From Promethearchaeota archaeon (GTDB lineage: Archaea; Asgardarchaeota; Thorarchaeia; Thorarchaeales; Thorarchaeaceae): a DNA stretch of 54,649 bases. Shown here in pieces: positions 8,708 through 21,077 of the stretch. Below the pieces are notes generated by a model. The model was not told the DNA's origin, ran no database searches, and was given only the letters and a program-made list of their open reading frames with translations. The stretch lies in contig WJMJ01000042.1 in the NCBI GenBank assembly GCA_014728035.1, positions 1-54,649 on the forward strand. The letters are read 5' to 3'. Each line of letters starts with the position of its first letter. Positions within the stretch are counted from its first letter, which is position 1. The position numbers and the translations under genes were made by a program.

Positions 8708-11700
8708 TTGGCTGCACGCAAAAAGACCGGAATTCGAAAAGGATTAGTTCTCTTTACACTAGCAATTCTACTTATTTCTTCAGTTATTTTTCCTGTTTCA
8801 GCTTCAACAATACCACAGGAATCTGTTGCTGCGAAAAACCAAATGACATCAAAACCATTGGTACATATTTACTTTGATGAATCATCAGAAAAACTAATTG
8901 AATTGAAGACTTCTACTTTACCATATCTGATCAATGAGGGATTTCTAGTTGAAACATATCAGATTGATTCATTCTATTTTCTAAAACAATATATCCAAGC
9001 GTACAAGCCAGATTATGGAATATACTACTTTGATAGTGCAACAACTGGAATGAACATTGATTCCAAGCTCATATCATGGGCCTTGATAGCTGAGGTTGTT
9101 GAAAAGAATCCTCTTACTGAGCATATTATTGGAATTGGAAATGCAAGAAGAATTGCAGACCATTTAGATGAATCCTCAAATTTGCATGTAGATGATACAG
9201 ATGTTATTGATGTTGAATTAACTAGATTGTTCGCACTCTGGACAATTGCTGATACAATGTCAGAATCTACTGAGAAGGGATGGGCAACCCAAGGAGAGAA
9301 TTTTAGAGAGGTCGTAATCAGAGACTTTGCAGACAATGTAAATGAGTATTTCTCGAAAGGATTGATTCCAGAAGAATATACTGGTGAGCGTGTTCCAAAA
9401 CCAATCAAAAATCCAAATCTAACACAAAAGTGGATTGAAGAAGAAAAACAGTATTCGCCAGAAGGTGAAGAATTAGAACCGGTTATGAAATTAGGAAATC
9501 TCGCACAAGATGAAGAATATATTCCTTTGAGAGAGATGCTTATTGACAGTGGTATTGGAGGACCAATAGGATGGTTACTGGATACCGTTATTGGAGCTCT
9601 GATTGAACTGGGATTTCATGATTTAGCAATACATGAAGAAGCTGCTGGACAAATTGTTGACCATTTCGAAGATGTAGTAAATGAATCAAGATATGAAGTC
9701 AGAGAATGGTTCATCGACGAGGGTTTCAATGTAACAGGACTTGACTATGGAGTTCACATATCCGACCTATTACCTAGGCAACTTTTTGAGTTTTGGTCGA
9801 TGACTGATCAACTATTCTTAGATGCATGGTACGAAGTAGATGATTATATTGGAGAATTTTTTGAGAGAGTAATTAATACACCAGTGCAGACTGACCTAAG
9901 AGGTCTAGTTCCTGTATTTCTATTCAGACTCGGTACTCCAATCAATCTCGGTTCTAATTTCGCATCTTTTGGTGCGGTATTGCGTGTTAAGTTATTGCCA
10001 GATTTTGAGATTGACAAAGAACCGTTCAAGACCTTCATGAATGAGGCAGTACTTGGAGACCTTGCTTTAGAGAATATGACAGACATTGAGGATGCATTTA
10101 CAGAGGTCCGGAAATTCATAGATATCATTCCAGTCATGAATATCGATTTTGCAATCTGTGCTTTTCTACCCACAGGAAATGATTGGGCTCAGGGTCTCAT
10201 GGGGCAGTTTACGATTGAATTCTTTGGACATGCATTTATGGAACTTGCATTTCCACCAATCGATGCATCCAATACTGACCGCTCATTTATCCATGTTCGC
10301 GAATGGGGATTCATTTTTGAATTAGATGCGGAATTTTCACTTAGTGTTTCAGCTTTCCTCGCACCTGGACCTGGGGGAGTAATCAGCACAATTCTAGAAT
10401 GGTTTGAAAAACTCTTATCGGTCACAATCGGTCTGACATTATCTATAATTTTAGAGATAAGCAAGAAATATCAAGGGCAAGGACTTCCTGCTCTATCGAC
10501 TCTACTCTTTGACATAGTTATTGGTGTATCCCTTAAGATACGGATTCTTGTAGCGATATTCAAAGGAAAACTAAAAGTTGGACTACGTTTTGAACAAAAA
10601 TCAGGTATTCTAGAAAGCGAAGAGTTCATGAGAGTAGCAGCAGAAGAACCTGCAGTCTATCACACTTTAAGCGAAATAAGCACATCAACATTGGGAATTT
10701 ACATATCATTGTATGCTTCGCTCTACTTTGGTGTCGACTTATTCTTTACTTCATTTGGAACAAAATTTGGTGGGCCCTGGGAAACAACCTTCGACCTATC
10801 AACATCGTGGGATAATTCGGATTACGGCACGGAGGCTGCTGATTTAGTAGATACAGATGAGGATGGTCTTCCGGATGCTTTTGAAACAACCATAAGCACT
10901 GCTTATGAAGAAACTGAAGGATATATCCTAGCTGCAGACGGTCCATATCTGGATCCAACATCATCTGATACTGATGGTGACGGTCTCAATGACAAACTTG
11001 AGATTGAGATTAACACAGCTCCAAATAATGTTGATACTGACGAAGACATGCTCTCGGATTATGATGAACATATAACCTATCTGACAGACCCATTACGAAA
11101 TGATACTGATCGAGATAATCTAACAGATTATGATGAGGTTATCATATACAAGACGTCCCCATTCAATATAGACACGGATGGAGATGCATTACATGACTGG
11201 TATGAAATCAATACAGTCTATGACATAACATTCACTAGTGGAACCTATGGCGCTGTAGAAGAAGTAGAGATTGGCGGTGTAATATACAATGATAGAACTG
11301 ACCCTCTAAATCCTGACACGGACCAAGATAATCTGCTTGATGGAGAAGAATGGGAAAATGGTGTCATGTACCTGAACGAGAGTGAACTCGAATGGTACCA
11401 ATATGCACATTATCAATATACTCATCCACTTGACAGCGATACTGACGATGATAGCGTTGCATGGCAGTTTACGGGTAATTGGAATGACCCGTTTGAACCA
11501 ACTGATGATTTCATCTGGGAACTAAATGATGGCATTGAAGTGATGGGTCAGATTGCAACCATTCCAGACCTCGAAGGTTATCCTGAGGTAAAAGTGGTCA
11601 AGACTAACCCAGTCTACCAAGATACTGATAATGACACAGCATGGGGTTCTGTAGCCCTATATGTCACAGATGGATATGAACTAGCCCGAGACCCACAATG

Positions 11701-19278: not shown

Positions 19279-21077
19279 ATACACATACGAAATATTTACT
19301 GAGCTTACTTGTAGTCTTCACGTTCATCTCGATAGCTGCTACTCCGCCCATCTATGTGAACTATTCAGGACCTGTTAACCAAGAACAATGGAAACAAGAC
19401 TTGATAGAGTACATGGATGCATGGCAATTGGTAGACCCAGAGAAGAGAACACAGCAAGTAGATGATGTTTCATGGCAGATTGGATATAATTGGCAACAGA
19501 AGAAATTAGCATCAATGGACGTGGATTTCGGATACCTTGATACATTCAACTTCACAAACAGCAACAACACGTTTGGTAACTTTGTGATGACATCTGAGGA
19601 AGTCAACTCCAATCTTAGAAATTACATTCACCAACTCCTTTACAATGATATCGAACTCGCTTGTGAAGTAAGTGTGCTTGACATTATGTTATTCAGAGCT
19701 TTTGATTCTTTGATAATTGATTGGATAGACATGAGCTTTGCAGGATTCTGTAATGGTTTCGCTCAAGCTTCACGAGACTTCTACAATGATCCCGAACTCA
19801 TCCCCTTGGGAATAGATCACACATACAATTTACCATCACCAAATCCTAACGAAACAATATCTCAACAAACTGGTGGAGATGTTGTTGAAGCTGTGATCAA
19901 GGAATATGTCCTTTGGAAAGGTTCTGGTGCATTCTTCAATCCAAATCACTTACTGAATTGGATTAAGATTTACCTTGGTATCCCCACCCCACAAGGAGGA
20001 ATTACCAATGCACAAGAACTTGAAAAAGTCCAATCAGCAATGATGGTAGGAACTCCTCATTACACACCAGCAGTCATTCTCCTTATGGCTCCAATTTGGG
20101 AAGTTCCAGAACCTACAGAGAGTCACTTTGTTACCGCTTATGACTATGACGTGAATCCTAACGGATCAACTACTCTCTATGTTTACAACAACAATGACAG
20201 ATATACTGGTCCCGATAATATGTACACGGATTGGATTCTCATTGATTCAAATGGGAATTTCAAAGGTACAAAATTGCATCCTGACGCGAATTACAGCAGA
20301 ATTGCATTCTATCCTGACACTGGAGAGTACAACAATATCCTTACTGCGTTGATGGACTTGCTTCCCAAACTGTTAGGTGTAGGTGTGTTCAGTCCTGTAG
20401 ATGTTGAGATAACTGATCCTATCGGTCGCTCAATCAGGATAGATGACGAAGGAAATCAGTATCATGAGTATCCAGCTCTCATGGTTAATGATGATGGAGA
20501 AAAACAGATTCTGATGCCTTTTGTTCAAGGGCTCCCCTACACAATTAATCTAACAGGAAATGATGTGGGAGATTTCCGCCTTGAAACAAATAGATTCAAT
20601 GGAGAAGAACTACTAACAAACGAAATTAACGGTACTACAGAACCGGATAAGAAAGATGTGTATACTGTCACTCTCAGAGATGAAGGAATCGATATTGTTG
20701 ATACTGGTGTATATTTACAGGAAGCTATGATTCTATCAGGTTCATCTGTTGAACTAGAATGGTCCCAGTTCGATAATGAAGCCACTTTTGAAGCATATGA
20801 AATATATATTTCAAAGAGTCCTGACAAACTAGGTCAGAAATATGGTGAATCCATCACTGATATAGCTCAGACTTCGAGTGTAATCACTGGATTAACACCA
20901 GAAACTACCTACTTCTTTACTGTGAAGACCATAACAAACGACAACACAACATACCAATCCAATCGAGTGGGAGCAGCAATGCCGGAAGATATCACTTTCT
21001 GGATCTACTTGATTGTAGGAATTGCTGGAATCAGTGTTGTGATACTTGCATTGGTTCTTTACAGACGAAGAGAGTAA
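19275..21077 (+). CDS. Membrane-anchored protein with putative papain/transglutaminase-fold catalytic domain and Fn3 domain
   Basis: Signal/TM; GFCNGF (C159), SHFVTAY (H284), LYVYNNN (N305); SPVDVEITDP.GR module; Fn3 (LEW..YEIY..ITGLTPETTYFFTV); C-terminal TM plus RRR; ATGA overlap. Confidence 0.75.
   Translation: MNTHTKYLLSLLVVFTFISIAATPPIYVNYSGPVNQEQWKQDLIEYMDAWQLVDPEKRTQQVDDVSWQIGYNWQQKKLASMDVDFGYLDTFNFTNSNNTFGNFVMTSEEVNSNLRNYIHQLLYNDIELACEVSVLDIMLFRAFDSLIIDWIDMSFAGFCNGFAQASRDFYNDPELIPLGIDHTYNLPSPNPNETISQQTGGDVVEAVIKEYVLWKGSGAFFNPNHLLNWIKIYLGIPTPQGGITNAQELEKVQSAMMVGTPHYTPAVILLMAPIWEVPEPTESHFVTAYDYDVNPNGSTTLYVYNNNDRYTGPDNMYTDWILIDSNGNFKGTKLHPDANYSRIAFYPDTGEYNNILTALMDLLPKLLGVGVFSPVDVEITDPIGRSIRIDDEGNQYHEYPALMVNDDGEKQILMPFVQGLPYTINLTGNDVGDFRLETNRFNGEELLTNEINGTTEPDKKDVYTVTLRDEGIDIVDTGVYLQEAMILSGSSVELEWSQFDNEATFEAYEIYISKSPDKLGQKYGESITDIAQTSSVITGLTPETTYFFTVKTITNDNTTYQSNRVGAAMPEDITFWIYLIVGIAGISVVILALVLYRRRE

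Follow-up and report, generated by a model that had tools for sequence, protein, structure and literature searches.

In the LapA/LapG system of Pseudomonas, LapG is a periplasmic protease of the BTLCP (C93) type that works under the control of LapD and cyclic di-GMP, and LapA is a substrate of a type I secretion system (T1SS) that is held in an outer-membrane pore. Repeats of the TSP3 type build another kind of bacterial surface protein, exemplified by CglD of Myxococcus xanthus, an outer-membrane lipoprotein with a VWA domain that is a TSP3-repeat adhesin like MtsD (10.1101/2023.10.19.562135). In Nerearchaeum marumarumayae, a very large predicted surface protein, the 'badge' (LOKIASV2_13140), has huge beta-sheet domains of a novel predicted fold and has been proposed to contribute to an irregular surface coat (10.1101/2025.07.22.663070). 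Cultured Asgard archaea have no ordered S-layer and carry unassigned, non-crystalline surface densities, which are thought to mediate the cell-cell contacts that are central to models of eukaryogenesis (PMC9834061; 10.1101/2025.07.22.663070). Here we analyse three co-oriented genes (hereafter the trio) at positions 8708-21077 of contig WJMJ01000042.1 from a Thorarchaeaceae genome deposited as Promethearchaeota archaeon (GCA_014728035.1); the whole stretch of 54,649 nucleotides (nt) is referred to as the window. Gene 1 encodes a predicted membrane protein with a head and a TSP3-repeat stalk, gene 2 an exported multi-propeller protein and gene 3 a membrane-tethered protein with a putative cysteine-enzyme domain. 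Comparative analysis of these sequences indicates that the trio is a real and conserved Thorarchaeota-specific variant of an undescribed pair of Asgard surface proteins, carrying in addition an orphan enzyme that is probably of the papain type. In the literature on FG-GAP and integrin proteins of Asgard archaea and on TSP3 repeats in archaea we found no description of either the pair or the trio, in agreement with an earlier annotation of the window (the original prediction), which knew of no account of this combination as an operon.

The three open reading frames (ORFs) are located on the + strand at 8708-13399 (gene 1, 1563 aa), 13396-19278 (gene 2, 1960 aa) and 19275-21077 (gene 3, 600 aa). 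Gene 1 begins with a TTG codon 8 nt past a Shine-Dalgarno-like AAGGAGG (8693-8699, +), and the N-termini of its homologues align from this start. The junctions between genes 1 and 2 and between genes 2 and 3 both consist of ATGA, at 13396-13399 and 19275-19278, and each is preceded by a GGAGG or GAGG motif; the three genes are translationally coupled. Both the co-oriented run and its two overlaps read as originally described.

To place the trio in a wider context, the window, which is contig C5 of a genome bin of 4.33 Mb (173 contigs, 97.9% completeness and 8.5% contamination), was compared with 200 other genomes sampled across the Asgard phylum, or 201 including its own. Full-length gene 3 is found in 10 of the 200 genomes, which represent 8 genera and without exception fall within the host's family (10 of its 43 sampled genomes). 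A trio-type gene 1 head (E<1e-190) is present in the same 10 genomes and a trio-type gene 2 N-terminus (51-78% identity) in 9 of them; in the tenth, G087, gene 2 is truncated at a contig end and visible only in the fetched locus (L031). In one genome (G164) the three genes lie on separate contigs. All 9 fetched loci, 6 complete and 3 cut by contig ends, have the same order of gene 1, gene 2 and gene 3 in the same orientation, with the genes overlapping or nearly so, while the flanks are unrelated from genome to genome and show no conserved gene for transport or another catabolic function beside the trio. Such conservation of linkage and order across genomes shows that the trio is one inherited unit, and homologues scattered independently of each other, which would have spoken against the predicted association, were not seen in these genomes. 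Database homologues agree with this distribution. We retrieved 26 full-length-type homologues of gene 1, of about 1500-1630 aa save for truncated records, and 36 homologues of gene 3 beyond the window copy, with 41-63% identity and about 600 aa when complete. Those with a source name come without exception from metagenome-assembled genomes of Candidatus Thorarchaeota, so that the Asgard host, on which the original prediction had made much of the interest of the locus depend, is borne out. By these comparisons, the trio is a self-contained, vertically conserved operon of one Thorarchaeota family.

The original prediction, while correctly delineating the trio itself, overlooked that genes 1 and 2 are members of a far more widespread Asgard gene pair. 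Homologues of the gene 1 head at 21-32% identity are present in 56 of the 201 genomes; these represent 11 families, and most of the proteins have about 2050-2250 aa. The gene 2 N-terminal propeller (E<=1e-10) is present in 49 of the 201, mostly in proteins of about 2650-3170 aa. Head and propeller of this wider pair, whose members we call gene 1' and gene 2', are found in at least 9 families and about a quarter of the sampled Asgard genomes. At about 40 or more loci, as judged by comparing contigs and strands in the two lists of matches, the propeller gene lies 6-7 kb downstream of the head gene in the same orientation, and adjacency was confirmed in each fetched locus (G000 contig C125, G026, G054, G015, G055, G131, G146 and G011). 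The order is different in G025 and in second copies in G139 and G015, where the propeller gene is upstream. One of the pairs is assigned to Heimdallarchaeaceae by NCBI. The window's own genome (G000) also has a copy of the pair (C125:28274-37327, locus L073), with a gene 1' of 2166 aa and a gene 2' of which at least 894 aa are present before the contig ends; directly upstream of this copy lies a gene for a NosD/beta-helix protein of 682 aa. In G025, which is from another family (L089, G025:C7), the propeller gene precedes gene 1 (6484-11142, -) in the reversed order and is split by one stop into ORFs of 600 aa and 878 aa (11327-13126 and 13130-15763, -), neither with a transmembrane segment; the gene may be a pseudogene or be read through, or it may have lost its anchor independently.

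Genes 1 and 2 of the trio have the makeup of this pair, a homologous head/TSP3 protein followed by a co-oriented FG-GAP giant. Trio gene 1 and gene 1' share the head, with its alpha/beta domain, SG-x-x-GP loop and sheet of long strands, as well as the TSP3 stalk, the transmembrane segment and the basic tail; gene 2 and gene 2' share N-terminal, middle and C-terminal FG-GAP regions; and the two sets of genes agree in order, orientation and tight coupling. There are, however, clear differences. Trio gene 1 is about 600 aa shorter than gene 1' and lacks the insert that in gene 1' separates the alpha/beta domain from the sheet. Gene 2 has an NHL insertion, and the pair paralogues align to its residues 1-400, 950-1190 and 1310-1810 but not to the NHL stretch. 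Gene 2' bears its own C-terminal transmembrane segment and basic tail, which trio gene 2 has lost, and the trio adds gene 3 with its Cys/His/Asn domain. Loss of the gene 2 anchor, gain of the NHL propellers and presence of gene 3 are the traits specific to the trio. A maximum-likelihood tree of the head unites all trio sequences in a clade of their own (support 100/99) that sits on a long branch and excludes the pair copies of Thorarchaeota; the pair copies group by taxonomic family. In two genomes of one genus (G093 and G149) the pair is fused in single ORFs of 4901 aa (L086, G093:C28, 1631-16333, -) and at least 4716 aa (L087, G149:C50, 2659-16806, -), the latter cut at the contig end. Both fused ORFs keep the transmembrane segment of gene 1, followed by a K/S-rich linker of about 65 aa, predicted to be cytoplasmic, and the former signal sequence of gene 2 as a second transmembrane segment. 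The fusion preserves the topology of both partners in this way and speaks for two products that work next to each other in the membrane. Taken together, these comparisons identify genes 1 and 2 as a divergent branch of an older Asgard pair whose members are adjacent and sometimes fused.

Gene 3 encodes a putative signal peptide, a Cys/His/Asn domain, an Ig-like domain, an Fn3 domain, a transmembrane segment and a terminal RRRE. An alignment of 29 sequences of the family reveals, among other invariant positions, C130, C159 (in G-F-C-x-G), H284 (in S/G-H-F-V) and N306 (in Y-x-Y-N/D-N); the codons of the presumed catalytic residues were checked on the sequence (Cys159, 19749-19751; His284, 20124-20126; Asn306, 20190-20192, +). 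The AlphaFold2 (AF2) model places C159 within helix 154-171, H284 at the start of strand 284-293 and N306 after strand 299-305. A Cys in a helix, a His at the start of a strand and an Asn past the next strand represent the papain-type order, and from the invariant triad, the AF2 model, the ESM Atlas and hhalign we delimit a putative papain-type (C39-like) catalytic domain at aa ~84-350 (19524-20324, +). It is followed by a stalk of an Ig-like sandwich (aa 366-476) and an Fn3 domain (aa 478-571; 20370-20987, +), the latter assigned to fibronectin type III (PF00041) by both a hidden Markov model match and its beta-sandwich fold, and by the C-terminal transmembrane segment (aa 577-595; 21003-21059, +; hydropathy 2.91). 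The model has a mean predicted local distance difference test (pLDDT) score of 73.5, with 80-92 in the Ig-like and Fn3 domains.

Indirect evidence relates the enzyme domain weakly to Peptidase_C39_2 (PF13529, clan CA). The ESM Atlas places residues 30-370 nearest to clusters labelled 'Peptidase C39-like' (language-model feature score 0.89), with a TM score of 0.65-0.69 by target over about 195 aligned residues for the Atlas structure model, and also lists an archaeal cluster that joins TSP_3 with Peptidase_C39_2. Against an alignment of 25 PF13529 domains extracted from the Asgard genomes, local hhalign gives a score of 27.7 (P 0.0028, HH probability 11%) and puts SHFV...YNN opposite GH...DP, and global hhalign sets Cys, His and Asn opposite Cys, His and Asp (P 0.004-0.047, probability <=11%). 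The reversed target scores 11.7, and the highest of 30 block shuffles 24.5. The domain and C39_2 share the order of a Cys in a helix, a His at a strand start and an Asn or Asp ending the next strand, and the G-F-C motif resembles the NGFC of C39_2 proteins from Thorarchaeota. In contrast to C39_2, the third residue is Asn instead of Asp, and 125 aa separate Cys from His, a wider interval that includes a helical insert; unlike C39 peptidases, gene 3 has no ABC-transporter fusion or double-glycine leader context. Searches with the enzyme domain by phmmer against 1.84 billion representatives gave only 9 matches, namely 7 members or fragments of the Thorarchaeota-type family, one repeat-type match in a 2912-aa protein and one marginal match, and the enzyme-domain profile finds only the trio genomes among the 201. 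Whole-protein fold searches with the gene 3 model (Foldseek and VIA) returned Fn3 matches only and are therefore uninformative on the enzyme domain. The papain fold that the original prediction had assigned to gene 3 fits the invariant Cys, His and Asn, which are in register with the C39_2 triad, but it finds no Pfam or NCBIfam counterpart. Because no curated family or solved structure is matched by sequence, we consider the fold only probable and the domain probably an unclassified papain-type enzyme, at most a candidate for membership of C39_2. Gene 3 defines an orphan family of putative enzymes that are tethered to the membrane, have their Cys/His/Asn centre intact and occur solely beside the two giant surface proteins.

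Other candidate relationships of gene 3 were also considered. A double-glycine cleavage site for a C39-like enzyme found no support in gene 1, where the invariant SGIGGP loop of the trio reads SGLRGP in pair paralogues from genomes that do not have gene 3, nor in gene 2, whose tail, including 'ESGG', is not conserved. Neither is gene 3 a detached stalk and anchor of gene 2', as residues 356-600 match six gene 2' C-termini only in the transmembrane segment and basic tail by BLASTP and hhalign. Outside the trio, Thorarchaeota and other Asgard genomes encode a family of proteins of about 485-510 aa (L048, L049, L051, L052, L054, L055 and L060) with a signal peptide, a Peptidase_C39_2 domain (motif VPYVWQEINGFC) and a C-terminal transmembrane segment, which makes them membrane-tethered C39-like ectoenzymes; close kinship of gene 3 with the Thorarchaeota members is not supported, as hhalign gives no significant relation (P 0.23). 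The host genome also has a second, 5'-truncated gene 3 remnant of 318 aa (G000 contig C115:31243-32196, -; L074:3244-4197), which begins just past the catalytic His region, has no gene 1 or gene 2 upstream and is followed instead by a RidA-like gene. It has 77% identity to aa 293-604 of gene 3 from a genome of the same genus (P0031) and 44% to the window copy.

Gene 1 is predicted to encode a type I membrane protein. A hydrophobic segment preceded by a basic n-region (aa 12-30; 8741-8797, +; Kyte-Doolittle mean 2.54) is its putative signal peptide. The head consists of the alpha/beta domain (aa 48-215; 8849-9352, +), a long helical hairpin seen in the AF2 secondary structure (aa 285-390; 9560-9877, +) and a sheet whose amphipathic beta strands are very long, at 15-20 aa each (aa 400-675; 9905-10732, +); the AF2 model of the protein has a mean pLDDT of 62.7. 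A conserved loop, SG-x-GGP-x-GW, stands before the hairpin and takes the form SGLRGPxG in the pair paralogues. From the trio to Heimdall-type pairs, D57 and a number of strand motifs are conserved, as are H139 (in 11 of 12 rows) and the SG-x-x-GP-x-G loop. The best fold match of the alpha/beta domain is to a CHAT/caspase-like domain, not VWA. An active caspase-like protease is nevertheless rejected because the head has no Cys and so lacks the His-Cys dyad of caspases, CHAT proteins and legumain. A reading as a VWA domain with a metal-ion-dependent adhesion site (MIDAS) was likewise rejected, the DxSxS positions not being conserved and D57 alone being invariant. A search of the ESM Atlas with the head returned nothing. 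The TSP3-repeat stalk follows at aa ~712-1490 (10841-13177, +), with a TSP3_bac match (PF18884) of 32.3 bits against a cut-off of 25 and 21 DxDxDxxxD motifs of the calcium-binding type at aa 715-1483, and the protein ends in a transmembrane segment (aa 1504-1522; hydropathy 2.04) and a K/R/S-rich tail, predicted to be cytoplasmic (13217-13396, +).

The gene 2 product aligns end to end with its orthologues at 40-62% identity. It starts with an FG-GAP-type propeller (aa ~60-400; 13573-14595, +) that has Pfam matches to FG-GAP_3, Itfg2 and BBS7-propeller. The NHL-repeat region, found in the trio form only (aa ~430-960; 14683-16275, +), has six clear hh[DE]xxNxR[IV] cores and a PF01436 score of 131.7 bits against a cut-off of 20; it also scores against lyase- and lactonase-type propeller families, at the level of repeats and below or near the cut-offs. 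A C-terminal propeller region of FG-GAP/VCBS type (aa ~1100-1900; 16693-19095, +) has six Dx[DN]x[DN]..E[IVL] loops at aa 1529-1884 and the best stretch for PF13517 at aa 1655-1719; over the whole protein PF13517 scores 83.1 bits against a cut-off of 26.9 in 3 stretches, and 9 FG-GAP-type calcium-loop-like motifs are present. In an alignment of 10 orthologues, conservation ends past GYLYxFEW, and the variable tail of about 60 aa (19096-19275, +) has neither a transmembrane segment nor a conserved sorting motif.

By hydropathy, genes 2 and 3 both have an N-terminal hydrophobic segment at aa 8-26, and with that of gene 1 this agrees with the signal peptides originally predicted for all three proteins; hydropathy likewise agrees with C-terminal anchors in genes 1 and 3 and finds none in gene 2. 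Above the curated cut-offs, Pfam finds each domain in the protein for which it had been claimed: gene 1 has TSP3_bac, gene 2 both NHL and FG-GAP_3, and gene 3 fn3. It reports no match for residues 1-700 of gene 1 or residues 1-480 of gene 3. The claim that all three are rich in N-x-S/T sequons holds in part. Compared with 2000 shuffles per protein, sequons are enriched in gene 1 (19 against 9.9 expected, p~0.002) and gene 2 (25 against 16.0, 1.6x, p~0.011), but not significantly in gene 3 (9 against 5.8, p~0.11).

How might the three products work together? The trio is a tightly coupled and co-inherited operon, it derives from a pair that is adjacent and sometimes fused, and the loss of the gene 2 anchor coincides with the presence of gene 3; from these features we infer one surface assembly. 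This bears out in part the original prediction of a single calcium-dependent complex, in which the propeller was to dock on the TSP3 stalk and the enzyme to cleave or cross-link it. Gene 1 would be a type I membrane glycoprotein whose TSP3 stalk of about 800 residues, stiffened by Ca2+, lifts the head, with its Cys-less caspase-like alpha/beta domain, helical hairpin and large beta sheet, off the membrane, and would serve as the anchor and spacer of the assembly. Gene 2 would be exported without an anchor and held at the surface non-covalently by gene 1, gene 3 or both, its FG-GAP and NHL propellers forming the part that binds ligands or partners. Gene 3 would be kept near the membrane on its short Ig-Fn3 stalk as an active papain-type (C39-like) cysteine peptidase or a related acyl-transfer enzyme. 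It may mature, trim or release the products of genes 1 and 2, and the shortness of the stalk suggests that it would most likely do so close to the membrane, as a built-in sheddase or maturase of an adhesion or contact structure. Some results weigh against this proposal. The topology and signal peptide calls for all three proteins come from hydropathy alone; the enzyme domain of gene 3 has an AF2 pLDDT of 50-75, its profile-profile signal to C39_2 is weak at the HH probability of 11%, and residues 1-372 match no Pfam family at E<=10, no NCBIfam and no PDB-sequence profile; the gene 2 tail and the gene 1 loops have no trio-specific conserved cleavage motif; and the trio, carried by only 10 of the 43 genomes sampled from its own family, is evidently dispensable. 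On balance, we regard an assembly in which gene 3 acts as a cysteine enzyme on its neighbours as close to an even prospect, if slightly short of one. The more elaborate picture, in which a Ca2+-stiffened stalk displays an unanchored module of five propellers, a papain-type ectopeptidase of a new class controls its maturation or release, and trio and pair together make up part of the non-crystalline Asgard coat and contact structures, seems to us unlikely to hold in full.

Papain-fold Cys-His-Asn/Asp centres serve transglutaminases and acyltransferases as well as peptidases, and gene 3 could on that ground be a cross-linker of the transglutaminase or transpeptidase type that joins gene 2 covalently to gene 1 or to itself, or an idle papain-fold holder of gene 2. 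An unanchored gene 2 does need to be retained, and gene 3 offers a stalk and a transmembrane segment; yet gene 3 matches neither Transglut_core nor any other family, its nearest leads are the C39-like peptidase clusters, and its stalk and transmembrane segment have no homology to the gene 2' C-terminus that would make it simply the detached anchor of gene 2, so that we hold this reading to be very doubtful. Another possibility is that the assembly is directed outward, with the gene 2 propellers and the gene 1 head binding detrital protein, peptide or polymer and gene 3 cutting the captured material for uptake instead of its operon partners. Compatible with this, gene 3 has the look of a cysteine hydrolase that is intact and tethered close to the membrane, the other signal-peptide, C39_2 and C-terminal-anchor proteins of about 500 aa in Thorarchaeota suggest that such ectoenzymes are general in the group, and the NHL regions do score against lyase- and lactonase-type propellers. 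However, those matches are repeat-level and below or near the cut-offs, no transporter or catabolic gene is conserved by the trio, and a general ectopeptidase would not be expected to be inherited so strictly together with two giant structural proteins; capture and digestion is therefore unlikely in our view. The three could also be surface proteins that are co-transcribed for common export, glycosylation and regulation and yet function separately on separate targets, such as partner cells and mineral surfaces. No interface or common motif emerged from the sequence comparisons, and clusters of giant repeat adhesins that form no complex are frequent. Separate function sits poorly, though, with co-occurrence in one order over 8 genera, with stop/start overlaps that are kept, with an ancestral pair that is fused in two genomes and with a gene 2 anchor lost only in the form that has gene 3, and we think it quite improbable.

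FG-GAP and TSP3 repeats in an Asgard archaeon may also invite the thought that the trio is a direct homologue or ancestor of the integrin alpha/beta and thrombospondin adhesion systems. What is common to them is repeat units, which are widespread in bacteria too (PMC3192720; 10.1101/2023.10.19.562135). Against integrin beta, gene 1 has no betaI/VWA domain with a MIDAS, as its alpha/beta domain conserves D57 alone and not DxSxS. Against integrin alpha, which has one seven-bladed FG-GAP propeller, thigh and calf legs and a transmembrane segment, gene 2 has several FG-GAP and NHL regions and no thigh or calf legs, transmembrane segment or GFFKR-type tail. Furthermore, the module is patchy, being present in about a quarter of the sampled Asgard genomes. 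These sequence features largely refute such descent at the level of architecture, and we give it hardly any credence; the likeness to integrins and thrombospondins appears to be one of repeat units, with homology beyond that not supported.

The surroundings of the trio were also inspected. Pfam names among the scanned neighbouring ORFs are PAS histidine kinases, flotillin, a luciferase-like oxidoreductase, a P-type ATPase and an ABC ATPase. The 420-nt leader 5' of gene 1 is AT-rich; the interval 8250-8760 has no Rfam match at E<=1, and a GAATGTT...AACATTC hairpin in the leader adjoins the Shine-Dalgarno motif of gene 1. At the other end, only 36 nt (21078-21113) separate the stop of gene 3 from the end of a convergent PAS histidine kinase gene, and this spacer holds an inverted repeat, GGATGAAC-GTCAT-GTTCATCC, that could be a terminator common to both genes. 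Further downstream, large + strand ORFs at 29874-34442 (1522 aa), 35833-38583 (916 aa) and 38652-42905 (1417 aa) may encode additional surface proteins. The flanking flotillin and P-type ATPase genes (4599-5939 and 23420-25333) were compared with G128, G087, G140, G146 and G182. Their best matches (78-80% and 53-56%, respectively) are in other genera (g9, g14 and g16), and the same-genus genome G128 has no flotillin match and an ATPase at 35%. Given the 8.5% contamination and large size of the bin, contig C5 may represent a second Thorarchaeota population in a mixed bin or an exchanged region. The two genes are about 3.6-4.4 kb apart in G140 (C7:114715-121565) and G087, compared with 17.5 kb here (5939-23420), where the trio, a luciferase-like gene, a gene for an unknown protein of 393 aa and a PAS histidine kinase gene lie between them. 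Since the trio is on other contigs in G140 and G087, this cassette has moved.

The trio and the wider pair offer concrete, conserved and testable candidates for the surface structures of Asgard archaea, and the gene 3 family with its two giant surface proteins makes a natural set of an enzyme and its candidate substrates. Among the described systems, the 'badge' resembles the gene 1 head in its large beta sheets, a likeness by description only, and no stalk, partner or enzyme gene has been described for it. CglD and MtsD share with gene 1 the long arrays of TSP3-type calcium-binding repeats in a surface adhesion protein, but the match of gene 1 to the CglD family (NF033765; E 7e-39, 133.3 bits against a cut-off of 400) covers the repeats only and that to MtsD (NF047639) reaches 25.8 bits against 800, placing gene 1 in neither family, and CglD differs from the trio in having no FG-GAP partner and no enzyme gene. 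The likeness to LapA/LapG, which the original prediction had drawn loosely, survives as a functional analogy and not at the level of the enzyme, since gene 3 has no match to BTLCP (C93, PF06035) at E<=10 and is not a LapG protease by family. No T1SS or LapD component appeared in the general Pfam scan of the neighbouring ORFs, in which no search was aimed at these parts, and the trio differs from LapA/LapG in belonging to a single-membrane archaeon and in consisting of Sec-type proteins with transmembrane anchors. What the two have in common is the idea of a giant calcium-binding repeat protein at the cell surface together with a dedicated cysteine protease able to release it. The three products may plausibly form one complex at the surface that includes a LapG-like protease.

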